From positions 1 to 52,207 of the forward strand of contig JAITOC010000057.1 in NCBI GenBank assembly GCA_031290175.1: a DNA stretch of 52,207 nt. Direction: 5' to 3'. A program made the position numbers and the translations under genes. How positions within the stretch are numbered: the stretch's first letter is position 1; each line of letters begins with the position of its first letter. The notes beneath the pieces are model-generated. The model searched no databases. It was not told the DNA's origin and saw nothing but the letters and a program-made list of their open reading frames with translations. Below are positions 2,120-49,848 of the stretch, piece by piece. This DNA is from Coriobacteriales bacterium (GTDB lineage Bacteria; Actinomycetota; Coriobacteriia; Coriobacteriales; UBA8131).

Positions 2120-3601
2120 TTGTTGGGGAAACCAATTCAGGATACAGCGATCACGCTCTGCGCCTGTGTGGCGTTCATTGCCTGCAGCGTGTGGTTTTAC
2201 CTCGTAGGCTACAGTTCTTCGTTTGAGGGTTCTGCAAAAATACTCATCCTTGGCATCAGCCCTGAGCGTATGCTGTTCTTTCTCGCGGTGATAACCGCCG
2301 GTGTGCTTATGGCCTTGCTACGCCGTCGCGTGCAACGCAACAGCAACCTCATATCCGCCATCGTCTATACCCTGCTGCTCATGGGCACACTCGTCTTCGG
2401 TCTCGCTGGTTATCAGGTACTGGTAAACGCAACAGTGCTCGCGTGTATCACCACGGTGCTGATGGGTTTTGGCTATGGGTGGACACTCACGATACTGTGG
2501 CTGATGTTGGTTCGTTTTGACAGTCTCTGGCGTATCGCGGTCGTGGTTGTGGGCTCATCGGCTCTGGCTCTCCTGATCCTTGCCGCAATCCATTATTTCA
2601 CCGACGATGCCGCTCAGGTAATCCTCTCGGTACTCATGGTACTACTGCTCATCGCTTGCATCCTCGTTCTGCAACGTAAGCTTGCTGTATGGGGCGCCTC
2701 CAAAGAAAAGATGGTGCAAGCTGCTGCACAGCCGTCGGTGGTACCGGTTGCGCAAGGTGAATACCCGTCCCTCAATAACGAGCAGCGTTATCATTTGTTG
2801 CAGCTCATGGCCATGTGCATCATTGTGATTGCCCTGCGCGACACCAACTCTGGTGGTCTTTGGGGAGGCGTGCGTGGAGATTTGCAAATTGTCGATCTCG
2901 CCGCATTTGCGCCTACCTTGGCTACCGCAGCCCTGTTCTTGGCCGTAAGCCTTTTTATGTTCCGCTTTCATACCCGCTCTGAGCGTAATCAGCGCCTGCA
3001 GTTGCCTTATCTGCTGCTGGTTGCCTTATTCCTTGCGTTGAGTTTGTTGCAGACGAACTTTGGCTCAACGCTCTCCTATACGGTGTTCTCCTCGGCAACC
3101 GAGTACATCAGTCTGGCGATATTCAGTTTTACCATTGCCAGCACGGCGCGCAGGCTGCCCTATCCGCCCTTGCTCACAATAGGCGCTGCGGTTGCATTCA
3201 ACCATTTGATTGCACTCGTCTGGATGGTCTTCTTTGAAGACATCGGCCTGATGGCAAGCTTCGTGTTTTCCTGCCTCTGCTATCTGCTGGTTCTGCTCAT
3301 GGCCTTCATGGGCTGGAAGGGCATCATTAAAGGGGCGAATACCACATCGGAGAGCAACGACATCTATGCCTCTCTGCTGCACCGCTGTAAAGAGCTTGCA
3401 GACGATAAGGGGCTCACCCAACGCGAGACCGAGGTTCTGATCCTCCTTGCACAGGGTCGCAGCATGCCCTTTATACAAAGCGAGCTCCATCTCTCAGAAG
3501 GCACCGTGAAGACCCACGTGAAACATATCTACGCCAAGCTCGACATCCACACAAAGCAGGAACTGCTCGATTTTATGGGCGCTCCTCTGCGCCAGGCGTA
3601 A
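2120..3601 (+). CDS. Multi-pass membrane sensor with C-terminal LuxR HTH (Eggerthellaceae-type one-component regulator)
   Basis: About 12 hydrophobic segments, then GLTQRETEVLILLAQGRS...LSEGTVKTHVKHIYAKL. Divergent from the flavoprotein. TGgTACACT extended -10 at about 2077-2085. Confidence 0.9.
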   Translation: MLGKPIQDTAITLCACVAFIACSVWFYLVGYSSSFEGSAKILILGISPERMLFFLAVITAGVLMALLRRRVQRNSNLISAIVYTLLLMGTLVFGLAGYQVLVNATVLACITTVLMGFGYGWTLTILWLMLVRFDSLWRIAVVVVGSSALALLILAAIHYFTDDAAQVILSVLMVLLLIACILVLQRKLAVWGASKEKMVQAAAQPSVVPVAQGEYPSLNNEQRYHLLQLMAMCIIVIALRDTNSGGLWGGVRGDLQIVDLAAFAPTLATAALFLAVSLFMFRFHTRSERNQRLQLPYLLLVALFLALSLLQTNFGSTLSYTVFSSATEYISLAIFSFTIASTARRLPYPPLLTIGAAVAFNHLIALVWMVFFEDIGLMASFVFSCLCYLLVLLMAFMGWKGIIKGANTTSESNDIYASLLHRCKELADDKGLTQRETEVLILLAQGRSMPFIQSELHLSEGTVKTHVKHIYAKLDIHTKQELLDFMGAPLRQA

Positions 3602-3797: not shown

Positions 3798-4024
3798 ACG
3801 CAAAAACCCCTCGCGGGTTCGAATCCACGAGGAGTTGATGTTGTTGGTAGCCCGTACGGGATTCGACAATCGCTCGCTTCGCTCACGCTTGTAGACCTCA
3901 CTCGCTTCGCTCGCTCGGACGTTTTTGCTAAAACGTGCCGCGGGCACGTTTCTTAACGCAAAAACCCCTCGCGGGTTCGAATCCACGAGGGGTTGATGTT
4001 GTTGGTAGCCCGTACGGGATTCGA
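3798..4024. repeat. 69-bp direct repeat (3798-3866 and 3956-4024) of the tRNA-Glu 3' end plus flank, enclosing an 89-bp palindromic insert
   Basis: Copies differ at 1 base. Insert has GCTTCGC at 3876 and 3904 and AAACGTGCC-gcg-GGCACGTTT at 3931-3951. Confidence 0.9.
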
Positions 4025-4080
4025 ACCCGTGAATCTCCGCCTTGAGAGGGCGGTGTCCTAGGCCGCTAGACGAACGGGCC
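4003..4080 (-). tRNA. tRNA-Glu(CUC)
   Basis: GGCCCGTTCGTCTAGCGGCCTAGGACACCGCCCTCTCAAGGCGG...GGTTCGAATCCCGTACGGGCTACCA; cloverleaf, anticodon CTC, encoded CCA. Confidence 0.97.
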
Positions 4081-4177: not shown

Positions 4178-4251
4178 TGGCTGGGATGGAAGGAGTTGAA
4201 CCCTCACTGACGGAACCAGAATCCGCTGTCCTACCATTAGACGACATCCCA
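4178..4251 (-). tRNA. tRNA-Gln(CUG)
   Basis: TGGGATGTCGTCTAATGGTAGGACAGCGGATTCTGGTTCCGT...GGTTCAACTCCTTCCATCCCAGCCA; anticodon CTG, encoded CCA. Confidence 0.97.
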
Positions 4252-4381: not shown

Positions 4382-5410
4382 TCAAAATGACTCGAGGAAA
4401 AGATCGAGTGAGTCTCCATAAGAGATGTCGTTGACCCGGGAGGTCGCGAACACGCTGGCCGCCAACAGGACAAGGGACGCAAACACAACAATCACCAAAG
4501 CACGGAGCGCCGATCCGACGATGAGTCTGATTCGTGTGGGAAGACTCCGTTTTGGAGCGCGTGGAAACTCATGGTAAATATGTATCTGCTTGCCTGAGGC
4601 CATGGTCACAATCTGGTTCTCATCAGAAAATGTGCCCAGCACGAGAGGAGCTGGCGATCTCTCTCTTCCCATTGAGTCATGTTCGGGGTCACTCTGCTGT
4701 AGTATCCGGTCAGCCTCAAGCCCAAGCGCCTCGCTCTTGAGCTCCTCGTTCTGCAGGCTGAGCTCAAGTAGTTCAGTTATGCGTTCGGCAAGTTCCTGCT
4801 CAAGGGTGAACTTCTCCTCAAGCGCACGCTCAAGTTCTGCACCGAGATTCTCCGTTGTTCCACTTACTTTTTCAAGGTCGTCGATCAGCTCTTCGCGGCT
4901 TAATGCGTCGAGCTTGACACGTTCACGGGTGTTCTCCAGCACGGCGCGGAGCAGTTCGTTGTCTTCCTTCTGTGTTTTCAGGGATTCCGAGAGGTCGCGC
5001 AGCAGTTCATCCCGCTGCTCGATCTTCACGTTCAGATCGAGCAGGTTTTCATCGCGATGATGTATCTCTTCTTGAAGCCTGGCTGCTTCTGCCAGCGCGG
5101 TCGAATAAGCTGTCGATGACTCGACCGCGCTTTCTGCTTGCGTTTCAATCGCAGGGGCATCATCCTGTGCTTCAGCTTCGTTGTCTGCGGCATGCTCGAC
5201 GCCCTGAAAGCCATGGTCATCGAGAAACTCCTTGGCGGCAAAGATGTCATCAGCGCATGCCAACTCCCTACCCAGACCAACATGGCGTTTGTCCGGATAG
5301 ATGAGAACATTTCCCACACGGTACGTGTTTGAAGCGCCTTCGGGGAGCAGCAGATCCTGCGCAGTAATCTCGTAGAGATACAGATCCTTGTATCTACCGC
5401 GCCCGATCAA
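4382..5410 (-). CDS. Hypothetical coiled-coil protein with C-terminal transmembrane segment
   Basis: 342 aa. Small N-terminal domain, long E/L-rich heptad region, hydrophobic ALVIVVFASLVLLAASVFA near the C-terminus. TTG start uncertain. Confidence 0.75.
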   Translation of the reverse strand: MIGRGRYKDLYLYEITAQDLLLPEGASNTYRVGNVLIYPDKRHVGLGRELACADDIFAAKEFLDDHGFQGVEHAADNEAEAQDDAPAIETQAESAVESSTAYSTALAEAARLQEEIHHRDENLLDLNVKIEQRDELLRDLSESLKTQKEDNELLRAVLENTRERVKLDALSREELIDDLEKVSGTTENLGAELERALEEKFTLEQELAERITELLELSLQNEELKSEALGLEADRILQQSDPEHDSMGRERSPAPLVLGTFSDENQIVTMASGKQIHIYHEFPRAPKRSLPTRIRLIVGSALRALVIVVFASLVLLAASVFATSRVNDISYGDSLDLFLESF

Positions 5411-5447
5411 GGTAGCTCTGCTTATCTCTGCTCAGTTGAGTGAGAGC

Positions 5448-5675
5448 TCACGAAAGTCCGAGGTATTGATCAAGAGCCTCGCGGATCATATCTGAAGAAC
5501 TTGTTGGATGGATACCGTGGATCTTGTTGTAGGCAGACTTCTCGAGCAGCAGCACGTATTGATCTGCGTAGATGTAGAATCCCTTGTACACTGTTGGGCG
5601 CTCAACACCCTTTTCATTCTTTAGCGCTTTCGTGAGTGCTGATTCGTTCGTCGGTTTTGCAGTTGCTTTTGCCAT
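5448..5675 (-). CDS. Small ribbon-helix-helix-like (CopG/ParG-type) DNA-binding protein
   Basis: ATG at 5675 after AAGGGGG. 75 aa: flexible K-rich N-terminus, beta strand KGFYIY, helices ending SSDMIREALDQYLG. Confidence 0.6.
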   Translation of the reverse strand: MAKATAKPTNESALTKALKNEKGVERPTVYKGFYIYADQYVLLLEKSAYNKIHGIHPTSSSDMIREALDQYLGLS

Positions 5676-5722
5676 ATGCGCAACCCCCTTCATAAATAAT
5701 TGAACTTTTTTCCTAAAACCTA

Positions 5723-5756
5723 TTGACAACCGAGTACTGCTCTATGCTAGCATAAT
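5723..5756. promoter_or_regulatory. AT-rich divergent control region with TTGACA and 12-bp palindrome TATGCTAGCATA
   Basis: TTGACA 5723-5728; palindrome 5743-5754 overlaps the candidate -10. Spacing is non-ideal. Confidence 0.45.
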
Positions 5757-5818
5757 AAAGCATCAGGGGGAATACTTTTTTTGTAGATATTTTATGAAAA
5801 TGTATGGAGGGATGATGA

Positions 5819-7114
5819 ATGAGACCAAAAAAGGTCGTTTTTCGGCACCGGTTACAGCTATCTGATGCAAGGGTACATCTTTGTGAGCGCTTCTTCTTGT
5901 CATTCATTTTGACTTTTGCATCGGTGCTCTTCTGCTCCATGGTCTCAGTGTTCAGTGGTTTGATCCCCTGGGAAGTTCAGGTTGCCTACGGGTTGGACAA
6001 GATAGACAGGGAGTATACCTACGATGCCGCAGGAGCCCCTCCGCAAGTAGAGCAGATGGTCACCGATGAGGCCGGAAGCCACTACAAGCTCGTAGCCACC
6101 AGCGAGCCGATTCCCGCAGATGGCTTTATCCACGAGATGGTCTTCACTTTTACGCAGATACGAGCCATTACTGCTGAACAACAAGCACAGGGGGAGGCTG
6201 CGCTGCGTGCCCAATTTGAACCCCGAGTGCTTATTGACGAAGACGATTATCGGGGTTCCATTCCGTTTGTCTCGCTCAATTCGGAGCCGTTTTGGCGCTC
6301 GGTTGAACGGGTGGTTGATAGGCAGTCCACCTACAAGGGTCTCCCCAGCGAGGACATCATACAGTTGCCCGAATATGCCGATTTTCTCGTCACAAGCGAC
6401 GAATCCGTGGATGCAAGCACGACAAAGAGCTTACGACGTGCTGGCGTTGTCTGGAAAACAACGGGCTATGCGGAGGATGGGCGGCCAAACGAGTTTGCCG
6501 CAACCGTCACCTATCGAGGTGTCGAGCGCGATCTGGTTGCCGATTATTATCTGGTCACCGCTCACTATGAAGGCGTCGTACCCGCGCGCGCCCAGATGGT
6601 GACCATTGTTGCAACCTATGAATTGCAGGTCGAGCCAGAGGTTGTGCGCGCCGCAGCGGTTCCGCCGCGTGAGTCGGCCAGCCTGCCCGCTGTCAATATC
6701 CCCCTTGATGCTCCTGCGGCTCCCTTCCCCTGGTTTATGCTCGGTCTTGCAGCCATGGTGAGTCTGCTTGGTCTGCTCATCTTGCTCTACTTTCTCCTGC
6801 GCAACAACGCCCAGCTCATTGAGACCTCTGTGGAGGGGCCAAGTCGCGTGTTGTTGCGCAAGCGTCTGAGGCTGAACGACGGTGAGGCACTCTTTCCGAT
6901 TCCCGCTGAACTTGAGCTCTTTGCTGCGGGTACTGCGCACAGGATTGTTCTGAGCGAGCGCCTTGCAAAGCGCGAAGGGATGCTGGTCGTGCACTGGGGT
7001 GACCTGCGGCTTTTGCTAACGCGTCTGTCGCGTGAGGTGGATTTGGCAGAGGATTTGGTCAGTGCCGCAACACCAGAGGTGTTGTCTGAAGGGGGGTTGA
7101 CCAAAGATGCATGA
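5819..7114 (+). CDS. Exported membrane-anchored protein of unknown family, with a C-terminal cytoplasmic domain
   Basis: Signal-like N-terminus ending VAYG, beta-rich extracellular domain, Pro/Ala linker, TM WFMLGLAAMVSLLGLLILLYFLL, ~100-aa tail. Homologous to the last third of 44171..49243. Confidence 0.8.
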   Translation: MRPKKVVFRHRLQLSDARVHLCERFFLSFILTFASVLFCSMVSVFSGLIPWEVQVAYGLDKIDREYTYDAAGAPPQVEQMVTDEAGSHYKLVATSEPIPADGFIHEMVFTFTQIRAITAEQQAQGEAALRAQFEPRVLIDEDDYRGSIPFVSLNSEPFWRSVERVVDRQSTYKGLPSEDIIQLPEYADFLVTSDESVDASTTKSLRRAGVVWKTTGYAEDGRPNEFAATVTYRGVERDLVADYYLVTAHYEGVVPARAQMVTIVATYELQVEPEVVRAAAVPPRESASLPAVNIPLDAPAAPFPWFMLGLAAMVSLLGLLILLYFLLRNNAQLIETSVEGPSRVLLRKRLRLNDGEALFPIPAELELFAAGTAHRIVLSERLAKREGMLVVHWGDLRLLLTRLSREVDLAEDLVSAATPEVLSEGGLTKDA

Positions 7115-7919
7115 CGAGAAGACAAACCCCGAAGACAAGCAGGAGCTCGAAGACAAGGCCGACCGCAGAGGAGTGATTATTGGCCTTGCGCTAGTGGTTG
7201 TCTTCTTCATTGCGCTCATCTTGCTGTTTGCTTGTTCGCATTCGGTGGATTCTGTGTACACAGACGATACCAAGACGCTGCCCTCTTCCGGGAAGCCAAC
7301 AGAGGCTGGAGCCGAAAGGGACGTTAAGGCACCCGACAAGGCAACGGATGCGGATAAGGATGACGGGGACGGGAGGGGTGCAGACTCAGCTGGCGGCGAA
7401 GACACGCCTGCATTCGGTGATGAAAGCTCAAGCGGTGGGAGTGGCTCCGGGGGAACGGGGTCTGGCTCAGGAAGCGCGGGGAGCGGGAGCCCGGGGAGCG
7501 GGAGCACGGGCAGCAGCGGTTCTGGCAGCACGGGGGGCTCCGGTGGAGGAGGGACTGCGCCGGGTGGCAGCGGTTCCGGTGGCACGGGTGGCTCGGGCGG
7601 GGGAGGAGCAACGACGCCAACAGATCCCAATGCCGGAAAGACCTGGCACCCCGCATGGGACGAGAGCGTGTGGGTTGTAGATGTTCCGGGGCACAATAAC
7701 GAGGTCTACCATCAGGAGGAGGGACACTATGCTGCTGTGTGCAATACCTGTGGCGCAGAGCTCGGTCCCGGGTTGGCGGGTCAGCACTTGTTGGGCACAG
7801 GGCACGATAGTTACAGAAGCAATATATGGTTTACAGATGTCCCTGCGTGGATCGAGTCTGTCTGGGTACCTGAAGTAGGGCATTGGACAACGATACACCA
7901 TCCGGGTTATTGGCAATAG
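7107..7919 (+). CDS. Membrane-anchored protein with Gly/Ser stalk and His/Trp-rich CxxC terminal domain
   Basis: N-terminal TM, GS-rich linker, C-terminal WHPAW..VCNTCG..H..H..HHPGYW. Overlaps the upstream stop codon. Confidence 0.8.
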   Translation: MHDEKTNPEDKQELEDKADRRGVIIGLALVVVFFIALILLFACSHSVDSVYTDDTKTLPSSGKPTEAGAERDVKAPDKATDADKDDGDGRGADSAGGEDTPAFGDESSSGGSGSGGTGSGSGSAGSGSPGSGSTGSSGSGSTGGSGGGGTAPGGSGSGGTGGSGGGGATTPTDPNAGKTWHPAWDESVWVVDVPGHNNEVYHQEEGHYAAVCNTCGAELGPGLAGQHLLGTGHDSYRSNIWFTDVPAWIESVWVPEVGHWTTIHHPGYWQ

Positions 7920-7934
7920 GGAGGAGAAGTAGAA

Positions 7935-10900
7935 ATGACACACAAAACAACACACACTGCGTCTGTGGGAGCTACGCTTCGGCGTTGCCTGCCGGCACTG
8001 TTTCTCGTAGCGGCTCTTGTGCTCTGTGGTTTGCAGGCTTCCCTCGCCTTTGCAGAAGACGAGATGGAGGAGGCTGTTTCTGGCACATCGGTTACGGCTG
8101 AAGAGGATGCAGGGGAAGATGACGCTCCTGCCGTCAAGCAGTATTCACCCCCTCTAACGCCCGGGCCTCCTCCGGTTGCAAGCATTCCACTGGGCAGCGG
8201 TGGCTTCGGTCTATTTGATGTAGCACCCTTCACTCCTCCCGCCACCTTGACCGGCACGTTTGAGGTGACCTACGCCTATGATACAAACGAGCCAAACAGC
8301 CCCGTGCGCAGCGATGACCACTTTGAGGGTAACCTGGCTATTGTGGAAGGGGACTTCACGGTAGATCGCTACGGTGCCTGGACACCGAACAATCCTTACA
8401 GCAACAGGGCAGCTGTGTGTTTGGATGGCTATGACCCCAATCGCCCCTATTACAACACCAGTTGGCCGGTCGGTACGCGTGCGGAGCATGTCGTACTGAC
8501 CTTTCTGAACTACGACACAACGACAAAACTTGTCTGGTACTACGCTCAGCTCTCGATGAACGCACCTCAATATCAGCGCCTTGGCATGTATGTGGCACTG
8601 AGCTGGGGCGGTGCGATTGAGTTGCAGAAACTCAGTGCAAGTCCAGCGATGACCGACGGTAATGCCTGCTACTCACTTGCAGGTGCCACCTATGGATTGT
8701 ATGAGTCTCAGCTAGACGCCGCAAACGATACCAAGCGTATCCATACCTTTACCACGAACAGCAGCGGTTATGGAGGCAAGGCAGAAGACCTCTGGTTTAG
8801 CACCTACTACATCAAGGAGTTGACCGCTTCTCCCGGATACGAGCTCGACGGGCGCATCTACGCGGTTGCGCTCAATACCGCGCTGGTCAAGCAGGAGGTT
8901 CTGGAAATACCCAAGGCCGACCCAGTGATCATGGTCGTACAAAAGCTCGACACTGAGACCGGTGAGGCCTACGGCAAGGATGACCCCTCAGGTGCTTCTT
9001 TGGCAGGGGCAGAGTTCACCATCCGCTATTGGGCTGGCTACTACGATACGGTGGAGGATGCTGAGGAATCTGGAGCGCCGACGAGAACATGGGTTTTGGT
9101 GACGGAGTCCAGCGGGCAGACCGCAATGATACCTCGGCTGCTTGTTTCTGGAGATCCCTTCTATTATGGTCTCGACGGCAACCCCACCCTCCCCCTCGGC
9201 ACCGTCATCATCCAGGAGACAAAGGCACCCCCTGCCTACCTCTTGCCCACCACCACACCCACGCTTGCCAACAAGGGCATCCAGCACATCAAGGAAGACC
9301 CCCTCGGTAAAGTTATCGAACTCAACCCGCTCCTCGTACCTGAGACTCCCCGCAAGCTCATCGTTGCCAAGCGTGACCGCGACACGCAGGCACTCCTGCC
9401 CGGTGCCACCTTTGCCCTCTATAAGGAGAGCGCCAAGGGGGCAGGTGACTGGAAGCTCATCGCCACCAAGACAACCGATGCAACAGGAACCATCAGCTAC
9501 GCTCCCATTGCGGCGGGTTCGTACAAGGCGGTAGAGACCGCAGCGCCTGCGGGCTACCTCCTTCCCTCTCAAAACGGTGGTAGCAATGAGCAGGCCTTCG
9601 TGATCAGGGAAAGCGACACCAAGCAGACCGTCGAGCTCACCTTCAACGACGCAGAGATTACCGGGGCAATCGAGCTGCGGAAGCAAAGCGAGAATCCAGC
9701 TTTGACTAACGGCAATGCCAGCTATTCCCTTGCGGGTGCCACCTATGGACTTTATGGGTCGGAGACAAACGCAAAGGCGGACAAGAACCGTCTGCACACG
9801 TTTACAACCAACGCAAGCGGCTACGGTGGCAAGGCGGTCGATCTGAAATACAGAACCTACTACATCAAGGAGCTAAAAGCCTCTCCTGGATACACACTCG
9901 ATGAGAAAATCTACACCGTGAAGCTCAATACTGCGCTGACCACGCAGGAGGTTTTAGAAGTGCCCAAGGGAACCCCGGTGAGCATGCTTGTGCAAAAGCT
10001 CGATAGCGAGACTGGCCAGACCTACGGCAAAGACGACCCGACCGGGGCTGCCCTGGCAGGGGCAGAGTTCACCGTCCGCTATTGGGATGGCTACTACGAT
10101 ACGGTAGAAGAGGCTGAGGCCTCTGGTGTACCGACGAGGGTCTGGGTGTTAAAGACGGGCGTCGATGGAAAGGCCTCGATGGGCTCTCCTTGGCTCGTTT
10201 CAGGAGACGCCTTTTACTACGATACCAGCGGCTCCCTGATCCTGCCTCTCGGTACGGTTGTCATCCAGGAGACAAAGGCACCACTTGCCTATCTCTTGCC
10301 CACCACCACACCAACGCTTGTCAACAAGGGCATCCAGCACATCAAAGAGAACGCGCTTGGTACCGTCGTTGCATTCAACTCGCTTAAGGTACCCGAGACC
10401 CCGCGTAAACTCATCGTTGCCAAGCGCGATAGCGAGACACAGGAGCTTCTGCCCGGCGCAACCTTCAAGCTTTACAGGGAGAGCGCCAAGGGTGCAGGCG
10501 ACTGGAAGCTCATCACCACCAAGACGACCGATGCAGCGGGAACCATCACCTATTCGCCCATTGCAGCAGGATCTTACAAAGTGGTCGAGACTGTGGCGCC
10601 TGCGGGCTATCTTCTTCCTTCCCAATGCGGCTACAGCGACGAGCAGGCCTTCGAGATAAAGGAAAGCGACACCGCGCAGATCGTCAAGCTCACCTTTGAG
10701 GACACAGCAGGCACCATAATCGTGAACAAAGTCGACAGCGATACCGCAGAACCTGTGGATAACACAGAGTTCACGCTCTACTCCTATCCCGTGACTCTTG
10801 CCAATGGACTTATCACAACCGATGTCTCCATCATCACCTCCGACGACCCCGCCTGGGCAGAGGTGGATACCAAGGTCACAGACGCACAGGGCAAGTTGGT

Positions 10901-12122
10901 TTTTGAAACCCTGCCCTTTGGGTACTACAAGATCGTCGAAACCCGCTCGAATCCCCTCTACGCAACCAATGAGGAGAGCGGGGGCACAGACCACTTTATC
11001 GTGCTCGACAAGAACACGACATCCGAGGTTCAGCTCTTTGAGGACGATCTCATACAGCTGTCCTGCGAGATATTCAAAGACACTATCAACGTCACGAGCG
11101 CAGCATTCCGAAGTGGCGAGGACGACTCGCTCGGCATTGATAACACGAATGCCGAGATGTTCCACTACGATCTTGACTTCCGTTCGACCTCCAGCGTGCG
11201 TGCCGACGAGTTCACGGTTATCGATTACATGGAAAGCGCCGCCGCTGGTCAGGTCACGCTCGTCGAGTTGTTCACGCCGGTTACCTGGGGCGATACGGAC
11301 GGATCTTTCAATCTCTGGTATCAGACGAACCTGACAGATGCGGGCACAATGTATTCACATGCGAATGCCATGAGTATCGACTCAACAGACGCCGACATTC
11401 CTGAGAAGGCACAGCAATGGTCGTCTCGCGGCTGGAGGCTCTGGGCGGCCGGTTTGCCCACCACAGCCACAACTCATTTGTTGGTCGCCGATCTCGGACT
11501 CTCGCCCAATGAATACGTGACGGCAGTCCGGTTTGAGTTTGGCAGCGTTGAGGCGGGGTTCACGACACGGGCAGCTGTCATCAACGGGCTGCAAACGGCC
11601 AAGGAGTTCAAAGATACCTCTGTGGATTGGACGAACCCGAAGATCACGGATGATGGTGCTGACAGAACAGACGAGGTGGACGCAGGCAATCCAAGGAGCG
11701 TTACCGTCCAAGGTGTGGCAAGTGCTTCATGCGCCCCCTCTGCCTCCGAGCTCAGACCCGCCACCTACCTCGTAACCTGCCCCGACGAGCTCATACCGCC
11801 GGCGGTGCTCACGAGCTCAGCACAAGCATTCATCGCACGCAACAGCGTCTTGACTGACGAGGATCTTGATTCTGTGAACACGCAGGTCATCGGAAGTTTC
11901 ATGCCACTGACCTTCTCTGATCCGCCGACCGATACCTCTACTCTGAAGAACTACGGCCAATCGGGCTCTGGCAAGCGCCTGCCCGACATGGGCGACTCTA
12001 CCTTAGGCACGCTTGCTCTTGCAGGAGCTCTGTTTGCCCTGGGTCTCGCCTTCATCGCACAACGCCGACTTGATAAATCAGCAAACAGGAGAACGACGCA
12101 ATCCCAAGGGGAGGCCGCATAA
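7935..12122 (+). CDS. Large sortase-type surface protein with SpaA/Cna-B (prealbumin-like) repeats
   Basis: RBS GGAGGAG. Signal peptide ending AFA. Repeated LAGATYGLY / YYIKEL.ASPGY / LPGATF.LY / VET.APAGY motifs. LPDMG at 11979-11993, then TM and basic tail. Confidence 0.9.
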   Translation: MTHKTTHTASVGATLRRCLPALFLVAALVLCGLQASLAFAEDEMEEAVSGTSVTAEEDAGEDDAPAVKQYSPPLTPGPPPVASIPLGSGGFGLFDVAPFTPPATLTGTFEVTYAYDTNEPNSPVRSDDHFEGNLAIVEGDFTVDRYGAWTPNNPYSNRAAVCLDGYDPNRPYYNTSWPVGTRAEHVVLTFLNYDTTTKLVWYYAQLSMNAPQYQRLGMYVALSWGGAIELQKLSASPAMTDGNACYSLAGATYGLYESQLDAANDTKRIHTFTTNSSGYGGKAEDLWFSTYYIKELTASPGYELDGRIYAVALNTALVKQEVLEIPKADPVIMVVQKLDTETGEAYGKDDPSGASLAGAEFTIRYWAGYYDTVEDAEESGAPTRTWVLVTESSGQTAMIPRLLVSGDPFYYGLDGNPTLPLGTVIIQETKAPPAYLLPTTTPTLANKGIQHIKEDPLGKVIELNPLLVPETPRKLIVAKRDRDTQALLPGATFALYKESAKGAGDWKLIATKTTDATGTISYAPIAAGSYKAVETAAPAGYLLPSQNGGSNEQAFVIRESDTKQTVELTFNDAEITGAIELRKQSENPALTNGNASYSLAGATYGLYGSETNAKADKNRLHTFTTNASGYGGKAVDLKYRTYYIKELKASPGYTLDEKIYTVKLNTALTTQEVLEVPKGTPVSMLVQKLDSETGQTYGKDDPTGAALAGAEFTVRYWDGYYDTVEEAEASGVPTRVWVLKTGVDGKASMGSPWLVSGDAFYYDTSGSLILPLGTVVIQETKAPLAYLLPTTTPTLVNKGIQHIKENALGTVVAFNSLKVPETPRKLIVAKRDSETQELLPGATFKLYRESAKGAGDWKLITTKTTDAAGTITYSPIAAGSYKVVETVAPAGYLLPSQCGYSDEQAFEIKESDTAQIVKLTFEDTAGTIIVNKVDSDTAEPVDNTEFTLYSYPVTLANGLITTDVSIITSDDPAWAEVDTKVTDAQGKLVFETLPFGYYKIVETRSNPLYATNEESGGTDHFIVLDKNTTSEVQLFEDDLIQLSCEIFKDTINVTSAAFRSGEDDSLGIDNTNAEMFHYDLDFRSTSSVRADEFTVIDYMESAAAGQVTLVELFTPVTWGDTDGSFNLWYQTNLTDAGTMYSHANAMSIDSTDADIPEKAQQWSSRGWRLWAAGLPTTATTHLLVADLGLSPNEYVTAVRFEFGSVEAGFTTRAAVINGLQTAKEFKDTSVDWTNPKITDDGADRTDEVDAGNPRSVTVQGVASASCAPSASELRPATYLVTCPDELIPPAVLTSSAQAFIARNSVLTDEDLDSVNTQVIGSFMPLTFSDPPTDTSTLKNYGQSGSGKRLPDMGDSTLGTLALAGALFALGLAFIAQRRLDKSANRRTTQSQGEAA
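8613..10710 (+). repeat. Intragenic tandem duplication, two ~1053-bp (351-aa) units
   Basis: AIELQKLS...LTFND starts at 8613 and AIELRKQS...LTFED at 9666. Long near-identical stretches, e.g. VIQETKAP.AYLLPTTTPTL.NKGIQHIKE. Confidence 0.9.
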
Positions 12123-13960
12123 TGAATCTGGCAGCAGAAAGGCTCGTGCAGAGCATACAGGAAACCACCGAGGTGCCGACCTTCATCGTGGCACCTTCAA
12201 AATCCGGGCGTTCCGCCCTTGCGCTCGCCTATGCCCGTGCCCATTGTGGCGTCGAAGAGGCGTGTTGGCTTGATGGCACTTCCGAGGCTTTTAGAGAGGC
12301 GCTCGATAAGGGTCTGCTTGAAGTGTTCCTCAGCTCTGAGGCTCCCGAGTATGCTGTATGCAGACTTATCGTCATTGACGATTTACCGGGGCTCGACGAT
12401 GGAGCTGCCCAGCGTTTCTCGGACGGGATCGACCGTCTGGTTGAACGAGGCAAACAAATAATCGTCATCTGTTCGCCTGAAAACGATGCGTTTGCAAGCC
12501 TTCAATCTGATCGTCACCTCATCGATGTGCGAGCGCTCTGCTCGATCTTCAGGCACGATGAAATGCGCACACTTGCCTTTCTGCAAGCATTTTTTGCCTC
12601 GGATCTACCGCTTGAGTTCAAATCGACTGCAAGCCTCATGATACTGATGCGCACGGGCGTTGCCGATGAGTTGCGCGCCCTGGGGTATCACATTGCATCC
12701 GACACCCCCCTGCTCCTCAGTGCGTCTTGTCCCCTTATCGACTTCGATAGCTCTAGCGGCTACTTTGATGCCCGTGCATGCTTGCTCAAAGGGCTTGACC
12801 AGCAGCTCTTCGCCAGTGTTTGTGCTGCTGCGCGCGAAGGAGAGTGTGTCGTACAAAGCGAGAAGGAGCGAGCTTTTGAGCGGCTGTCAGGGCTTGCCAT
12901 GCATCTGTTTGGGCGCGACGAGCGACAGGAGAGCATGGAGGTACTCGAACTTGCGGGCAGGATACTTGCCTTCGATGAGCTCGGATCAGCCCAGCTCACA
13001 AGCCTTCCGAAGGAAGGGAAGCCCAACGAATCTGATCTCATCCGTCCATCCGCTACTGCTTTGGACTTTACCCACGCGCCCGGCACTGTCTCCAACCTCA
13101 TCTGTTCACTCGACAGCATATCCGGTGAGGAGCTTCCCTCTCTCGATGTTCCAAAAACCCCCAAGGGGCGCACGAGTGTTTCAGAGCAGCGTGATTGTGC
13201 GGTGGAGCCGCTCGTGGTTCGCTTGTTCGGTGGCATGGAGATTATACTCAACGGTGTGCGCATCGAAGCGTCACTCCTGAGAAGAAGCAAGGTCAAACTA
13301 CTCTTTATCCACCTTGTCCTGAGCCTGGGTAAGGGCGTCTCGCGCGATACGCTTATCGAACGCCTTTGGCCGAACAAAGACCGTGTCCATGCGCGCGACA
13401 ACTTCTATGTCACCTGGTCACGCCTGTGTCGGGTGCTTGCAGGCTCGGAAAGCAGTTGCCCCTATCTTTCCAACAACAATCAGATATGTCGCATTGATGA
13501 TCGCTATGTCTCACTGGATATCCTTGAGTTCGATGAGCTCTCCAAGGCGGTGCTCTTTGGCAGAGGACCCCTCGATGAGCAGCTTGATGCTATCTTCCGG
13601 CTCGACCAGCTCTATCGAGGAGACATCCTCGCCGGCCTGCAGCTCGATTCTCATATTCGCAGCAATCAGCAGCGCTACCGGAGCCTTCTGGTTGACGTTA
13701 TGCTCAAGGCGGCGCAGACCTTCTCTGAGATGGGCAATGGCGACAATGCGTTATGGTTCGCGCGCAAAGCCTATGAGACCGATGCGACGCGCGAGGACGT
13801 GTACCGCATCCTCATGGACATGCAGGATCGCGCGGGGCAGCGCACCTCAGCCTTGCGCACGTACTTTGACTGCAAGCGCTATCTCAATGAAGAACTCGGC
13901 ATCATCCCCTCACAGCGCACAACAGCGCTCTATCAGGAACTCATCCTCGATCGGAGGTGA
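12122..13960 (+). CDS. SARP/AfsR-like regulator: degenerate P-loop NTPase domain + wHTH + BTAD
   Basis: APSKSGRS (degenerate Walker A), LIVIDD (Walker B), VRLFGG, SRDTLIERLWP, LYRGDIL, REDVYRILM, LNEELGIIPS. TAATG overlap with the adhesin stop. Confidence 0.85.
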   Translation: MNLAAERLVQSIQETTEVPTFIVAPSKSGRSALALAYARAHCGVEEACWLDGTSEAFREALDKGLLEVFLSSEAPEYAVCRLIVIDDLPGLDDGAAQRFSDGIDRLVERGKQIIVICSPENDAFASLQSDRHLIDVRALCSIFRHDEMRTLAFLQAFFASDLPLEFKSTASLMILMRTGVADELRALGYHIASDTPLLLSASCPLIDFDSSSGYFDARACLLKGLDQQLFASVCAAAREGECVVQSEKERAFERLSGLAMHLFGRDERQESMEVLELAGRILAFDELGSAQLTSLPKEGKPNESDLIRPSATALDFTHAPGTVSNLICSLDSISGEELPSLDVPKTPKGRTSVSEQRDCAVEPLVVRLFGGMEIILNGVRIEASLLRRSKVKLLFIHLVLSLGKGVSRDTLIERLWPNKDRVHARDNFYVTWSRLCRVLAGSESSCPYLSNNNQICRIDDRYVSLDILEFDELSKAVLFGRGPLDEQLDAIFRLDQLYRGDILAGLQLDSHIRSNQQRYRSLLVDVMLKAAQTFSEMGNGDNALWFARKAYETDATREDVYRILMDMQDRAGQRTSALRTYFDCKRYLNEELGIIPSQRTTALYQELILDRR

Positions 13961-14141
13961 GCTTTCGGGGCGTCCGGTCTGCACCCGCATATCGTTGATT
14001 GCCGGTTGTGAAGACCGTGCAACCGGACGCAACCCGAATTGCCGCGAAGCTAACTCTCTCGGGACTTGTGCTGTGGTAGAGTTATCATCGTACGCGTACG
14101 GCACGTACAGATGATAGTTTCGACCAAAGAAGGCATGTTAT

Positions 14142-16886
14142 ATGAGTTTTTTCTCAAAACTCCTCTCTATGGGTGAGGGCAAGCAGCTTAAAAGCTTTGA
14201 AGAGATCGTTGGACGTATCAACGAGATCGAACCGAGCATACAAAAACTTGATGATGAGGCACTGGTTGCTCAGACAACGGTCTTTCGCGAGCGGCTCGAG
14301 AACGGCGCTGGTCTTGACGATCTGCTGGTTGAGGCCTTCGCCACCGTGCGCGAGGCTTCGATGCGAACCCTTGGGATGCGTCATTTTGACGTGCAGCTCA
14401 TCGGTGCTATGGCGCTCGATGCGGGTCAGATTGCCGAGATGAAAACCGGTGAAGGCAAGACCCTCGTGTCCACGCTCGCGGGCTATCTGAATGCGCTTCC
14501 TGCGCGTGGCGTGCACGTGGTTACTGTCAATGACTACCTGGCAAAGCGCGACTCCGACTGGATGGGGCGCATCTATCGCTTCCTTGGTATGGATGTCGGC
14601 TTGATCCAAAACGGCATGAAGATTGCGGGCAAGATCCCGGCGTATCGGGCTGATGTGACCTACGGTACGAATGCTGAGTTCGGCTTTGACTATCTGCGTG
14701 ACAACATGGTCACCCGGGCGGATGATCGCGTCCAGCGCGGTCACGCATTCGCCATCGTCGACGAGGTTGACTCCATCCTCATCGACGAGGCGCGAACACC
14801 GCTCATCATCTCCGGAGCGGGAACCCGAGCCGCCGATACCTACAACAAGTTCGCCCGTGCGGTGCCCAACCTGCGCGATAGCATAGATTTTGAGATGGAA
14901 GAGGCAAAGCACACAATCTTCTCAACCGACGCCGGTCTCCATAAGATGGAGGTGCTACTCGGCATCGAGGACATCTATGCGGATCCTTCGGGCATGCTCG
15001 TCAATCACCTCCAGCAGGCACTTCGTGCGCAGTTCCTTTTCAAGAAGGACGTGGATTACGTCGTCGTGGATGGCGAGGTGAAGATTGTTGACGAGTTCAC
15101 CGGCCGCATCATGGAAGGGCGTCGTTACTCTGAAGGCCTGCATCAGGCACTCGAGGCAAAGGAGCGCGTGCTTATCCGTGAAGAGAACCAGACGCTTGCG
15201 ACCATAACGCTCCAGAATTACTTTCGTTTGTATGAGAAACTCTCCGGTATGACGGGTACCGCCATGACGGAAGACAGTGAGTTTCGTCAGATATACAAGT
15301 TGCCGGTCATGGCGATTCCTTCTAACAGGCCCGTGATCCGTGATGACAGGAACGATCTCATCTACCGTACGGTTGAGGCAAAGTTCAACGCCGTTGCCGA
15401 CGACGTGGCAGAGCGCCACGAAGCAGGGCAACCCTCGCTCGTCGGTACGGTCTCCATCGAGAACTCGGAGCGGCTTTCACGCCTGCTCGACAAGCGTGGC
15501 ATCCCGCATGAGGTTTTGAATGCCAAGCATCATGAGCGTGAGGCACATATCGTCGCGCAGGCAGGACGTGCGGGAGCCGTCACCATTGCGACCAACATGG
15601 CCGGTCGTGGTACCGACATCCTGCTCGGTGGAAACCCTGAGTTCCTTGTCGATGAACTGCTGGTAAACAAGGGCATCGTACTGGAAGAAGCCACAGATGT
15701 GGAGCGCGAGATGGCGCTTACACAGGCCGTCGGTATCTGTAAGGCAGAGCATGAGGTCGTTGTCTCAGCGGGAGGGCTTGCGGTCATCGGCACCGAGCGA
15801 CATGAGGCGCGTCGTATCGATAATCAGCTGCGTGGTCGCGCTGGTCGTCAGGGAGACCCAGGCTCCACACAGTTCTACCTGTCGCTTAAAGACGATTTGA
15901 TGCGCCTCTTTGGCGGTGACCGGATGGATCGTATCGGCTCGATTATGGAGCGTACCGACTTGCCGGAGGATGTGCCTATCGACTCGGGTATGGTATCGAA
16001 GGCGATAGAGGGGGCGCAGCGCCAGGTCGAGTCGATGCATTTTGATTCGCGTAAACACGTCCTCGAATACGACGATGTCATGAATCGCCAGCGTTCCGCC
16101 ATCTACCAGGAGCGCAACGCCATCCTCGATGGGAAGGACATCCATCAACGTGCGCTTGACATCATGCAGGACACTGTGGAGAAGGCGGCAGCGGAGTTTG
16201 CCAACACTGTCGCCGACGATTGGGATTTCGAGGGCATGCAGCTGTGGCTGAATGAGCTCACGGGCAGGGATGACTATCCTGTGAGAAACATCAAGCACAA
16301 AGACGACGCCAACGTGCTCGCCGAGAAGCTGTTTGAGCACCTCGATGGCATCCTCGCCGAGAAGGAGGAAACCCTTGGTGCAGAGCGTCTCCGCAAGCTT
16401 GAGATGCAGGTTATGCTGCGAATCATGGACACGCGTTGGATGAACCATCTGCAGGAGATGGACTATCTCAAGGCAGGCATCGGCCTGCGTGCCTTTGGCC
16501 AGCGCGATCCGCTCACTGAGTACAAGAGCGAGGCACACCTTGCCTTCGGTGAATTGCGTGACTCGATGTTTGAGGATTACCTGCGCACCGTCCTGCGTAT
16601 CCAGATAGTCATTCAGGATGAGCCGCCCGCCCAACTTGAGCAGGCAAAATACTCCGGCCCATCAGAGAATGTCCCTTCGCTGATGGGGGAGGCGCGGGCT
16701 CAGGCGGCACAACAGGCTGCAGCCAGAGGCGGTGCCGTCCCTGCGGGAACCCAACCTGCGGTTCGCAAGACAGCAACCATCATGAAAGACAAGGATGACC
16801 CCTTTGCCACCGTTGGGCGCAATGACCTCTGCCCCTGCGGGTCGGGCAAGAAGTACAAGAAATGCCATGGCCTTACGGCCGAGTGA
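14142..16886 (+). CDS. secA: Preprotein translocase ATPase SecA
   Basis: MKTGEGKT, DEVDSILIDEARTPLIISG, IATNMAGRGTDI, QLRGRAGRQGDPG, SEC-C GRNDLCPCGSGKKYKKCHG. Confidence 0.99.
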   Translation: MSFFSKLLSMGEGKQLKSFEEIVGRINEIEPSIQKLDDEALVAQTTVFRERLENGAGLDDLLVEAFATVREASMRTLGMRHFDVQLIGAMALDAGQIAEMKTGEGKTLVSTLAGYLNALPARGVHVVTVNDYLAKRDSDWMGRIYRFLGMDVGLIQNGMKIAGKIPAYRADVTYGTNAEFGFDYLRDNMVTRADDRVQRGHAFAIVDEVDSILIDEARTPLIISGAGTRAADTYNKFARAVPNLRDSIDFEMEEAKHTIFSTDAGLHKMEVLLGIEDIYADPSGMLVNHLQQALRAQFLFKKDVDYVVVDGEVKIVDEFTGRIMEGRRYSEGLHQALEAKERVLIREENQTLATITLQNYFRLYEKLSGMTGTAMTEDSEFRQIYKLPVMAIPSNRPVIRDDRNDLIYRTVEAKFNAVADDVAERHEAGQPSLVGTVSIENSERLSRLLDKRGIPHEVLNAKHHEREAHIVAQAGRAGAVTIATNMAGRGTDILLGGNPEFLVDELLVNKGIVLEEATDVEREMALTQAVGICKAEHEVVVSAGGLAVIGTERHEARRIDNQLRGRAGRQGDPGSTQFYLSLKDDLMRLFGGDRMDRIGSIMERTDLPEDVPIDSGMVSKAIEGAQRQVESMHFDSRKHVLEYDDVMNRQRSAIYQERNAILDGKDIHQRALDIMQDTVEKAAAEFANTVADDWDFEGMQLWLNELTGRDDYPVRNIKHKDDANVLAEKLFEHLDGILAEKEETLGAERLRKLEMQVMLRIMDTRWMNHLQEMDYLKAGIGLRAFGQRDPLTEYKSEAHLAFGELRDSMFEDYLRTVLRIQIVIQDEPPAQLEQAKYSGPSENVPSLMGEARAQAAQQAAARGGAVPAGTQPAVRKTATIMKDKDDPFATVGRNDLCPCGSGKKYKKCHGLTAE

Positions 16887-44170: not shown

Positions 44171-47100
44171 ATGAAACTGCAATCTATTTCGGCGGCATTA
44201 GCTAAAGGCCTGGCCACGGCTCTCGTCGTGCTGGTTGTCACTGCGGGCATCCCCTTTGTGGGACTCGCGTTTGGCAACGAGACGGTGAGGGGGTCGGGCG
44301 TTGCGGGCACTGCGCCTGCGGACTCCGACGCACAGAGTGCGCCTGATTCCAGCGCCATCCGAACACTAGACCCCGTACTTGCAGCAGAGACGAGCAACGC
44401 GGGCGCCTTGAGCGCGAGCGGCGTCGTCAGTGAGGACGCCCTAATCCCGGTCGAGCAGGAAAACTCCGATCAAGCCAACGACACCACCAGCTCTGAGGGT
44501 GCGGATGGCGCGGAGGTCGATATCAGCGGATTCACCATTCTTAGCGCGGATCTCACCGACCAGATAAATCTTCAGACGGGCTTTTTCTACTTCGACATGG
44601 CACTTCAGGAGTTTGTCAGGGTTCCGCCGAGCTTCTTGTTCATGAACGACCAGGTTGCCAGCCGTTACCGGATAAAGGCTGATTGGGATCTCGCGGGCGG
44701 CGTCATTGTAGAAGAGGGCAGCAGCTTCAGGATACCCATCTCCTTCGAGGGATCGGATATGCGTTTTGGAAACGTCTTGCCTATCTCATTCAAAGGCATA
44801 GATCAGACATCCGGGCAGGAGTTCCAGCTGGGAACCATCACGCTCAAGCATACCGATGCGCTGGGCAATCTGCTTGATACACCCCTGACCGAACCTGGCA
44901 GCTACTTTGCGCTCATCGCCACGTTTGACAGCGGTGCCTTCAGCGCACTGAACAACATCAAAGGCGAGTTCTTTATCGACTGCGAGATATACCCCGAGGA
45001 GGGGACTGAGTACGACGAGTTCAAGTGGACCGTGGGCAATGAGACGGGTGAGGGCTCCACGCAGGAGCCCTACGTCCCCCCGATAGTGGGGGAGCCGGGC
45101 TGGAGCACCAAGGAGGACTTTAAAAAGCTCTCGCAGCTCGATGCAAACAATGCCATGGTTCTCAACAGCCTCTACATCAACGAACAGCGCGAGAGCTTTT
45201 CAACGTATGGGAGCTCGGTGAAGTTGGCCGATACGATTGGCCCCGGCCAGGTGCTTTCGCAGCACTATGTTTGGGTGGACGGATCTGGTTTTGACCAGTC
45301 CTACGCACCCCAAACCGTCGATTACGCGCGCGGTATCTTTGGCTCCACGGTAACTGCCTCGGAGGGTGCCCCGGCGTACTTCAAGATGCTGGCTATCGAC
45401 TGGGAGCACGCTTATCAGATCCTCTACGATGTGCAAAGAGGCAGGAACAAGAGCTCGCTCGCTGGATATCCCATCACCAATCCTGCCTCTATCCCCAATC
45501 TCTCCTACGAGCTGCAGCAGAAATACCTTATCGTCGTGCGTTCCGCCACATGGGCGATAATCACCCGGGCAGTTGGTGGTGACTCGATAAGCCAAGCCCA
45601 AGGAGCTTTGATATTCGGCACCGACTTCAGCTACCTGAATAGCAATCCCGCGTACGCAACCTATCGCGCTACCTACGGCGATTTTACCGACTTTGAGGAT
45701 GTGCTGGCCTACTTTCTTACGCCGGTGGATCCCGCAGCCCTAAACAGCATCGAAGTTGATGAGACCAGCTTCACCCTAGACTTCAAGGATAAGGCGCTCG
45801 ACAAACAGACGCTGTTCATCTCCTACTTGACCAAGGTATTCGATCCTTTGCAGTCGTTGCTGTCAAACTCGGCAAACATCGATTGGAAGGGCAGCCCACG
45901 TCCGGTTTATTCATCGACGACAAACACAACAGGCGGCGGCGTGGTGACGGGTGATACCAACACCATCATGCTGCACAAACTTGACCCCCAGGGCAATCCC
46001 TTGCCGGGCGCGCACTTCAATGTTAGCAGGTATGCCGCTGACGACATCGAGCTCACGACTCCGCTCTTCAGTGAGGACCTCATACTCGGCAATGACGGCG
46101 CATGGGCCTCTACCGACAGGTTGGGCACCTATACAAAAGAGGATCAGATCGTCATAACCGAGACCCATCCACCGCGCGGATTCCTCCCTATCCCGGAAGC
46201 AAAGATTGTTTTGCATATAGACCCGGAGCACAACTATGCCGTTGTATCCTGTACGCCAGTGCCGAGTGGAGGTGGAGCCGATGGCGTACCCTGGCTTCAT
46301 GTTAGCGTCACAAACAATGGATCGGTACATATCTACGTAATCGACCAGCTCGATCAACAGCTCTCTCTGTATGACGTAGCTCTGCGGAAGTGGATTGTCA
46401 GGGTAAATGATACAGCCGTCACTGACGACGCCGCAACACAGGGGCTGCCTTCTCCCGTTGTGCAGGTTGATTACAACGATTATGTCACCTTCAAGATACG
46501 AGTCTTCAACCAGTGCGAGGAGCCGCTCATAGCAGCTGAAATCACCGATTACTTCCCTCGCTGGTTGCTTTGGGATGAGGATCTTGCCTCTGTTGAGAAC
46601 GCCGGCTGGAGCTTGGTTCCAGGAGCGGGGGGTGCGCGCGACCTGCTCGTTTACGACTGGAGCGACTATCCTACGGGTGCTCCGGTACTCACTCCGAACA
46701 CCTCAACTGAGCCGGGTGTCTACAGTGAGGGTTCTTATGCAGACGTCTATCTGACGCTTCGTGTCTCACCCTCAGCACCGGCAGGAGACGTCTTCACCAA
46801 CCTTGCGGAGGTCAGCAGGCTGACCGATGAGGACGGTGCCGCTGTTGTCGATATTGATTCGATCCCTGACCAAGACCCTGAAAATGACGGAGCCGTATGG
46901 GATAACGTCATAGACGGCAACGCGAAGGATCCATCAGCATCAGGCGCGGATAAGGATGAGGACGATAGCGACCTCGCTGAAGTCATTATCCCCAAGGCTA
47001 TCAGCTGCGAGGTTGACAAGGACACCATCAACCGCACGAGCGCAGCCTATGTCAGCCTGCCCGGGCAAGAGGGTTTTGATAACGTAGGCAAGGAAGACGA

Positions 47101-49805: not shown

Positions 49806-49848
49806 CCTTAATATAATGACAATTATAATAATATGCATTATATTAAGG
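49806..49848. promoter_or_regulatory. Perfect 13-bp inverted repeat over the promoter/RBS of the ATPase gene
   Basis: CCTTAATATAATG-17 bp-CATTATATTAAGG. TATAAT at 49812 and 49824. Right arm overlaps AAGGAG. Confidence 0.7.

Follow-up and report, generated by a model that had tools for sequence, protein, structure and literature searches.

An adhesin cassette beside secA in an uncultured gut Coriobacteriia bacterium and the predicted membrane partner of its adhesin

Why should a long surface adhesin be encoded side by side with a membrane protein of no named family, and what have both to do with the regulator genes between which they lie? This question is raised by an operon at positions 4382..13960 of contig JAITOC010000057.1 (assembly GCA_031290175.1), a stretch of 52,207 nucleotides (nt) that we call the window and whose host is an uncultured gut bacterium of the Coriobacteriia. 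The operon is built in two layers, an adhesin cassette and a set of regulator genes. Comparison with relatives establishes that the cassette is a real, conserved, multi-component surface locus, and within it a high-confidence prediction places the membrane protein P0003 in contact with the adhesin P0005 just ahead of its sorting motif. We envision that P0003 serves as a dedicated, non-enzymatic escort or dock for the foot of the adhesin at the sorting step, a proposal that we regard as moderately probable. The parts of the cassette, and its second copy in the window, are as follows.

5819..7114, plus strand: P0003, with signal/anchor, ectodomain, linker, membrane helix and cytoplasmic domain; founding member of an unnamed family
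7107..7919, plus strand: P0004, with membrane anchor, Gly/Ser stalk and a C-terminal domain of ~95 residues
7935..12122, plus strand: P0005, a fibrillar adhesin of 1395 residues with signal peptide, collagen-adhesin-like region, SpaA/CnaB-type stretches, C-domain and LPDMGD
11037..11969, plus strand: C-domain of P0005 (residues 1035-1345), a modelled pilin-type immunoglobulin (Ig) fold plus a linker that ends 3 residues before LPDMGD
11979..11996, plus strand: sorting motif LPDMGD of P0005, with Met where relatives carry Thr
44171..49243, plus strand: P0007, the second cassette, in one continuous open reading frame (ORF) of 1690 residues

The adhesin cassette and its conservation in relatives

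A search with the P0003 protein found relatives in 21 of the 33 same-family genomes (23 of 33 with a profile) and in two of 27 genomes from other families of the order. Across the 61 genomes of the co-occurrence count, 23 hold both a P0003 relative and a match to the adhesin C-domain, three hold the former alone, eight the latter alone and 27 neither; the eight with a C-domain alone comprise five incomplete members of the family and three near-complete genomes from other families. The loci of 20 relatives were fetched, five of which break off within 600 nt on the side in question, and in all 15 informative loci a P0003-family ORF stands beside a SpaA adhesin with a C-domain, or one small gene apart from it. 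Two gene orders were seen, namely P0003 followed by the adhesin, and the adhesin followed, in some cases after P0004, by P0003. The genome of the window, which is 78.5% complete, contains exactly two C-domain matches and two P0003 matches (lower bounds both), and the two P0003 matches lie on the window's own contig (C98). The original prediction had read the block as a multi-component system and had staked this on homologues co-occurring and clustering in other genomes; across the relatives they do both.

The make-up of P0005 is that of an exported adhesin. Its N-terminus is a signal peptide (...LVLCGLQASLAFA), its collagen-adhesin-like region matches PDB chain 7k1u_A (E 1.1e-32), and a Pfam scan places SpaA (PF17802) in seven stretches (E 2.6e-74) and SdrD_B at E 9.1e-11. 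The hallmark of the adhesins that are paired with P0003 is the C-domain, which has no Pfam model. Its AF2 model (predicted local distance difference test score, pLDDT, 75; predicted template-modelling score, pTM, 0.74) finds its best fold match in BcpA (3kpt_A; Z 9.9, root-mean-square deviation 2.7, 127 aligned residues), followed by EbpB (Z 9.0), SpaD (Z 8.7) and RrgB (Z 8.4), and an NCBIfam model for SpaH/EbpB-family pilins matches P0005 at 84 bits, under its cut-off of 95. LPDMGD (residue 1349) is followed by the hydrophobic segment STLGTLALAGALFALGLAFIAQ and the basic tail RRLDKSANRR, and a sorting-signal scan detects P0005. The pentapeptide LPDMG(D) departs from an LPXTG-like motif in having Met for Thr; the relatives conform to [LFMIT]PxTG[DE], with xPxTG[DE] in 11 of them and IPRTAD in one. 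Contigs of another assembler from the probable source run, which do not amount to independent support, cover positions 5400-14100 in pieces with three differing letters and leave LPDMGD unchanged. These contigs fragment within a tandem duplication of P0005 (residues 226-923, window 8610-10703), in which an adhesin module of ~347 residues is repeated at 73% identity.

P0003 has no match in Pfam or NCBIfam. It consists of an N-terminal signal/anchor, an all-beta ectodomain (residues ~60-270), a Pro-rich linker, a membrane helix (304-326) and a cytoplasmic domain (330-416), and its AF2 model, in which the ectodomain is elongated, reaches a mean pLDDT of 84 and values above 90 across residues 60-270 and 330-415. 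A Foldseek search of the PDB with the whole model returned nothing at E<=1e-3, and the best Z obtained by VIA-align with the whole model was only 4.9, the N-terminal helix taking most rows. A word-indexed homologue search with P0003 gave just three near-identical proteins, and a profile search of 1.84 billion representatives gave 798 representative proteins at E<=1e-3 (390 at the stricter E<=1e-10), a sizeable family that yet lacks a Pfam name. Among the genomes searched, it is limited to a single family of uncultured Coriobacteriia and two families next to it, and 400 sampled genomes from elsewhere in the phylum gave no match; look-alikes in the Atlas are unnamed clusters labelled Bacillota (0.90-0.88), which we treat as a lead only. 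Neither Cys nor His is invariant anywhere in the family alignment, and a sortase-like enzyme was ruled out as a candidate for P0003 on this ground.

Does P0003 contact the adhesin? Co-folding of the P0003 ectodomain with the P0005 C-domain gave a median score of 0.87, compared with 0.00 for the best of three controls. In calibration, the mark of 0.87 was attained by 116 of 157 solved complexes and by two of 215 mismatched pairs, figures that apply only roughly here, because our own alignments were used. At least 90% of the contacts agree among the complex runs, and the pLDDT of the partner is 87 or more. Both proteins contribute conserved residues to the interface: it includes D179, G221, P223, R233 and G234 of P0003 and, on the adhesin side, T20, N36, E40, I285, F288 and residues 285-311 (C-domain numbering), and it takes in the linker that leads up to LPDMGD. 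Co-folding had been suggested by the original prediction as a check on the proteins of the locus; run for this one pair, it yielded a high score and supports binding of P0003 to the C-domain. The relation itself was absent from that prediction, as was the observation that in many relatives the two partners are fused behind the sorting signal.

Such fusions surfaced among the best 150 hits of the P0003-family profile, several of which are the C-terminal part of proteins of 1000-2700 residues. At least 14 proteins hold both partners as one chain, in the order adhesin, xPxTGD motif, two membrane segments and P0003 ectodomain. The 14 that were examined, 13 chosen from those best 150 hits together with P0007, are separate representatives of 50%-identity clusters; in every one, two membrane segments separate the adhesin part from the P0003 domain, and in 11 a canonical xPxTG[DE] stands just ahead of the first of these segments. 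Some fused relatives (P0126, P0131, P0159) lack the cytoplasmic domain and instead have two or three further membrane segments behind the P0003-like domain. One fused-form relative (G017:C61:6236-7216) has a single in-frame TAG within its P0003-like match, and thus fused and split versions may alternate within its clade.

The window's own fusion is P0007. A second copy of two components had been recognised at 44171 in the original prediction; the copy is real, and it is a single ORF and not two genes. Its adhesin part and C-domain (46979-47956) are followed by LPLTGD (47984-48001), a membrane segment and an Arg-rich loop, and then by a signal-like hydrophobic segment ending in AFA, a P0003-like ectodomain (from ~48200) and a last membrane segment. 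Residues 944-1243 correspond to the ~290 residues of P0005 that precede its sorting signal (35% over 335 residues, E 2e-34), and the P0003-like part matches the P0003 ectodomain (29% over 206 residues, E 5e-14). P0007 has no cytoplasmic domain, and no gene like P0001, P0002 or P0006 was found among the neighbouring ORFs that were translated and scanned. If the Arg-rich loop is cytoplasmic, adhesin and P0003-like domain would both be exposed on the outside. A protein with ATPase_2 and DUF234 domains is encoded 590 nt downstream of the fused gene (window 49833-51176).

P0004, which matches no Pfam or NCBIfam family, was found by BLAST in five of the 20 relatives' loci. Its C-terminal domain contains CNTCG and has invariant C212, C215, H227 and H233 and a terminal H-x-GYW. 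By its distribution and motifs, P0004 is an optional member of the cassette, with a putative Cys2His2 domain on a Gly/Ser stalk.

A sortase had been expected elsewhere in the genome, and the assembly indeed contains one PF04203 match, on contig C2, which TIGR03064 assigns to class B (177.9 bits, cut-off 153.75). Its gene (L001 1075-2013, G000:C2) lies between a purL-like gene and purF, a housekeeping-like position. A sorting-signal scan of 4378 ORFs found three C-terminal signals, those of P0005 and of two LPPTGD proteins (G000:C21:6983-12577, minus strand, 1864 residues; G000:C83:725-3037, minus strand, 770 residues). Both LPPTGD proteins are outside the genome's C-domain matches and are encoded on contigs without a P0003 match, and we rejected on this basis the idea that P0003 is a general sortase cofactor.

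Regulator genes and the secA-linked locus

The second layer of the operon and its surroundings comprise the following features.

4003-4080, minus strand: tRNA-Glu
4178-4251, minus strand: tRNA-Gln
4382..5410, minus strand: P0001, with a small N-terminal domain, a long coiled coil, an SGKQIHVYHEF motif and a C-terminal membrane segment
5448..5675, minus strand: P0002, a ribbon-helix-helix (RHH)-like protein of 75 residues, whose ORF is extendable to 5729
5676..5818, no strand: divergent intergenic region of 143 base pairs, AT-richer than its surroundings, presumed shared control region
12122..13960, plus strand: P0006, with a STAND-like N-terminal domain, then a probable winged helix-turn-helix (wHTH) and BTAD (SARP module) at the C-terminus
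14142..16886: secA, on the side of the locus after P0006

The coordinates of the six ORFs and their overlaps, as originally predicted, are all borne out by the ORF list and the translations. P0003 and P0004 overlap by 8 nt at 7107-7114 (ATGCATGA), P0004 and P0005 are separated by a 15-nt gap that holds GGAGG ahead of 7935, and P0005 and P0006 overlap by 1 nt at 12122 (TAATG). The intergenic region 5676..5818 is presumably a common control region for P0002/P0001 in one direction and for P0003 through P0006 in the other; GC content is 0.484 in 5001-6000 as opposed to 0.54-0.60 around it. A consensus promoter scan found no site within 5676..5818 and five sites region-wide compared with 4.8 expected from shuffles, and terminator-like sites numbered 11 compared with 9.1 expected, that is, no excess. 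The ATG at 5675 is most likely the start of P0002, because AAGGGGG lies upstream and this start fits the homologue alignments.

P0001 is, by its sequence, a tail-anchored and mostly cytoplasmic protein, whose SGKQIHVYHEF motif is conserved just before the membrane segment in an alignment of 14 homologues. Pfam and NCBIfam scans gave it no family. It is present, in single copy, in 29 of the 33 same-family genomes and in none of the 27 from the order's other families, and looks like a lineage-specific core gene. For P0002, the predicted RHH character holds as a likeness below threshold: the best RHH_1 match has E 0.0082 and 16.5 bits, under the cut-off of 20.5, the matches (E 0.008-0.012) cover the second helix only and are below threshold in seven of 11 homologues, and a PDB profile search yielded nothing (best E 0.69).

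P0006 had been described as a degenerate nucleoside triphosphatase (NTPase) with wHTH and BTAD domains. The BTAD part is borne out (PF03704, E 6e-16; 59.6 bits, cut-off 22.1) and is carried by six of six orthologues. Trans_reg_C, the wHTH model, has no hit at E<=1 in P0006 itself and hits three of the six orthologues (best 3.3e-5); SARP models align to residues 379-608 below their cut-offs, and AfsR (8hvr_I) matches across wHTH and BTAD at E 0.0018 (residues 393-607). The NTPase label, for its part, draws on motifs, weak AAA_14 hits and Atlas leads. The Walker A pattern GxxxxGK[ST] is replaced by APSKSGRS, of which a degenerate SGR[ST] is kept in four long orthologues, and the N-terminal third also holds an hhhhDD motif (LIVIDD). 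AAA_14 reaches E 0.13 in two of six orthologues, the Atlas gives 0.87 to AAA_22/WHD_MalT clusters (a lead only), and structure hits to AAA_14 clusters have template-modelling scores of 0.41-0.48. Two orthologues have no STAND-like domain.

A search of public genomes with the P0006 alignment recovered 26 loci, mostly metagenome-assembled genomes of Coriobacteriia, and in 16 of them, one from the Atopobiaceae, a P0006-like SARP gene lies directly upstream of secA. These secA-upstream genes encode 285 to 1087 residues with varied N-terminal additions, the short forms of 285-351 residues consisting of the SARP module only. Some of the loci are on Coriobacteriia contigs with no detected relative of P0001, P0003 or P0005. 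The position of a SARP-type gene upstream of secA is a conserved trait of Coriobacteriia; this regulator family would not have been expected there, and we know of no explanation for the pairing.

How firmly does the cassette belong to these regulators? The full order, P0001-(P0002) divergent from P0003-(P0004)-P0005-P0006, is found in the window and in G007, G006, G025, G004, G010 and G017, and in G004 and G010 the full unit is intact without an adjoining secA. We regard the arrangement as non-random: this gene order recurs in at least seven genomes of several genera. Also tying regulators to the cassette, RHH-like genes of a more distant kind stand next to cassettes elsewhere (L024, L027, L028). 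Cassettes without any of the three regulators exist as well (L029-L034 and the window's second copy). The original prediction had given the locus its own regulators. The shared order in at least seven genomes agrees with this; regulators without a cassette in five loci, cassettes without the regulators, and the unequal distribution of P0001 (29 of 33) and P0003 (23 of 33) do not. Judged from this gene content, the regulators are core genes of the family that the cassette has as neighbours, rather than a regulatory pair of its own, and the cassette probably shares their promoter region. In an unrooted P0003 tree, the genes from secA-linked loci lie together on one side of a branch supported at 96/99, and the history of the cassette at the secA locus fits one old placement followed by losses.

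Around the locus, secA is followed by a release-factor (prfB-like) gene, two transketolase halves and an ABC ATPase. Beyond the tRNA genes there is a LuxR-family (GerE) regulator of 493 residues (window 2120-3601), which has a 43%-identical homologue upstream of the cassette in L015. Further along the window is a transfer-messenger RNA (tmRNA) gene (28214-28564) with the tag peptide DRNRFALAA.

Possible roles of P0003

How might P0003 serve the adhesin? We envision a scenario whereby P0005 is a long surface adhesin of SpaA/CnaB-type domains ending in a sortase-type sorting signal, and P0003 is a bitopic membrane protein whose ectodomain would clasp the last, pilin-like Ig domain of the adhesin together with the ~27-residue linker before the sorting motif. 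Positioned on the outside of the membrane, P0003 would keep the foot of the exported adhesin in place, either so that the class B sortase can process it or so that it is retained. Because the one-chain forms keep every topogenic signal, cleavage by sortase, and probably also by signal peptidase, would release adhesin and partner from them in a 1:1 ratio. At the locus, where the cassette lies between divergent P0002 (with P0001) and the secA-resident P0006, the adhesin genes would share a control region and be translationally coupled to P0006.

Several observations weigh against this proposal. The complex is a prediction for a single pair, made from our own unpaired alignments. No RNA run was found to hold the stretch of the window, and the single DNA run that does may be its source. 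With the genome at 78.5% completeness, the count of a single sortase, like those of two C-domain and two P0003 matches, is a lower bound. C-domain-like matches, weaker ones (E 1e-25 to 1e-46), occur without P0003 in the near-complete genomes G035, G045 and G049. Regulators in the order P0001-(P0002) divergent from P0006-secA stand without the cassette in five loci (L035-L038, L040; P0002 is present in four), and a P0003 relative was found elsewhere in the genome in two of these five and was not found in the other three, whose completeness is not given. Cleavage of P0005 by sortase is doubtful, because its motif is LPDMGD and not LPxTGD, and the idea of a sorting escort may not hold for this copy. 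Finally, the escort model gives no role to the cytoplasmic domain of P0003, which is conserved and modelled at pLDDT >90.

It is this domain, unexplained by an escort, that keeps alive an alternative that we consider rather unlikely. P0003 might mainly be a transmembrane sensor of the adhesin foot, of whether it is present, processed or under load, whose cytoplasmic domain signals to P0001 and/or to the STAND-like domain of P0006 and thereby feeds back on transcription of the operon. A coupling of the P0003 tail to the regulator, as suggested in the original prediction, may thus exist. The position of the confidently folded domain just behind the membrane helix, the conserved juxtamembrane motif of P0001 on the same membrane face and the wedging of the cassette between regulators in at least seven genomes speak for such a sensor, and the Streptococcus gordonii system SGO_1180, which is reported in PMC11326707 to follow sortase processing by way of the piece of the sorting signal left in the membrane, provides a precedent. 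The cytoplasmic domain is missing, however, from many members of the P0003 family, the window's fused copy included; P0003 genes that do encode it occur in loci without P0001, P0002 or P0006 nearby (L030, L032-L034); and two P0006 orthologues lack the STAND-like domain that would receive the signal. A broader scheme, which we hold to be quite unlikely, would combine escort and sensor: the P0003 family would represent an undescribed step of surface display, a substrate-specific receptor for the adhesin foot with the option of a polyprotein that is split by sortase (LPxT|G) and signal peptidase (AFA|), and at the secA-linked operon its cytoplasmic domain would report anchoring to the coiled-coil protein and the STAND-like/SARP regulator in a feedback loop. 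Alternatively, P0003 may be an independent, co-expressed surface protein, the complex a false positive and the fusions accidents of read-through. Models tend to place exported, beta-rich proteins such as these two side by side, the calibration mark was attained by two mismatched pairs, and the TAG at the junction of one fused relative (G017:C61) would suit read-through; nevertheless, we find this decidedly unlikely given the score of 0.00 for the controls, the conserved interface, the presence of both membrane segments in all 14 fused cluster representatives, and the adjacency, seen in all 15 informative loci and in either gene order.

Two further explanations concern the cassette as a whole. 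P0005 could be the pilin of a sortase-polymerised pilus, with P0003 and P0004 as assembly factors in the manner of SipA of Streptococcus pyogenes; the fold matches of the C-domain are to pilin domains, an NCBIfam pilin model matches below its cut-off, and an accessory membrane protein essential to pilus polymerisation is reported in PMC4049620. Against this, the locus encodes no class C sortase, the sole sortase of the incomplete assembly is of class B, and the cassette supplies one multi-domain protein of 1395 residues instead of a pilin set. A regular-expression search of P0005 and P0007 found neither YPK nor [YFW]PK[NDST]. The pilin motif takes the form of a YPKN-like lysine. We therefore regard a pilus as very improbable, and the appendage that the original prediction had offered beside an adhesion system as unlikely. 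Hardly credible, in our view, is that the cassette is cargo of a mobile element or the remnant of an integrative and conjugative element (ICE) inserted beside tRNA genes. The tRNA-Glu and tRNA-Gln genes do lie 130 nt beyond P0001, and some relatives lack the cassette at this locus. The family-core gene P0001, however, stands between the tRNAs and the cassette, and the branch with 96/99 support in the P0003 tree fits vertical descent with losses. Furthermore, Pfam and NCBIfam scans of the six ORFs matched no integrase, relaxase, conjugation or sortase family, as the original prediction had held; the flanks are LuxR-type, secA, prfB-like and transketolase genes, and GC content at the locus (0.48-0.60) is within the range of the rest of the window (0.50-0.62). 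ICE cargo thus finds no support in these features, border repeats not having been searched for.

Comparison with known systems

Sortase-anchored adhesins are usually thought to require only Sec, signal peptidase and sortase. To our knowledge, no dedicated membrane partner is known for adhesins of the MSCRAMM type or SpaA(CnaB) type, and the fused forms would be the first natural examples known to us of a sorting signal inside a chain. Literature searches for an internal LPXTG or a sortase polyprotein found no natural internal sorting signal in a body of papers that excludes most subscription journals; the literature found on LPXTG adhesins of Coriobacteriia describes neither such a partner nor fusions, and no paper was found that joins SARP, BTAD and adhesin. 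A dedicated partner of the P0003 type, if true, would be a new component of the sortase-anchoring pathway.

P0005 resembles the MSCRAMM-type and SpaA(CnaB) adhesins (7k1u, BcpA 3kpt) in its signal peptide, collagen-adhesin-like region, SpaA repeats, pilin-type Ig last domain, and motif followed by membrane segment and basic tail; it differs from them in its motif, LPDMGD, and in a last domain without Pfam model that marks the subgroup pairing with P0003. The SARP regulators AfsR and DnrI combine wHTH and BTAD; the C-terminal 250 residues of P0006 carry BTAD and align to AfsR across both. The domain order of P0006 is presumably inverted relative to AfsR, the NTPase-like domain being N-terminal and the SARP module C-terminal. 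P0006 differs from these regulators also in a Walker A motif that is degenerate but conserved and in its context, which is secA and a surface adhesin rather than secondary metabolism.

For P0003 in its proposed role, the nearest functional analogue is the SipA/LepA-type accessory protein of S. pyogenes pilus operons, which is reported in PMC4049620 to be membrane-anchored and needed for correct pilus assembly. Like P0003, SipA is non-catalytic, is anchored in the membrane and has the gene of a sortase substrate as its neighbour. It is homologous to signal peptidase, whereas P0003 has no sequence or fold match to a known family, and no pilus polymerisation is expected here. As to the regulator layer, a possible logic is offered by SGO_1180 of S. 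gordonii, a two-component system that, as reported in PMC11326707, senses the membrane remnant of the sorting signal and so monitors processing by sortase A. In both cases the state of anchoring might be reported across the membrane to a transcription regulator; SGO_1180 would do so by a histidine kinase and response regulator, neither of which is present here, whereas the candidates at the secA-linked locus are the cytoplasmic domain of P0003, P0001 and P0006.

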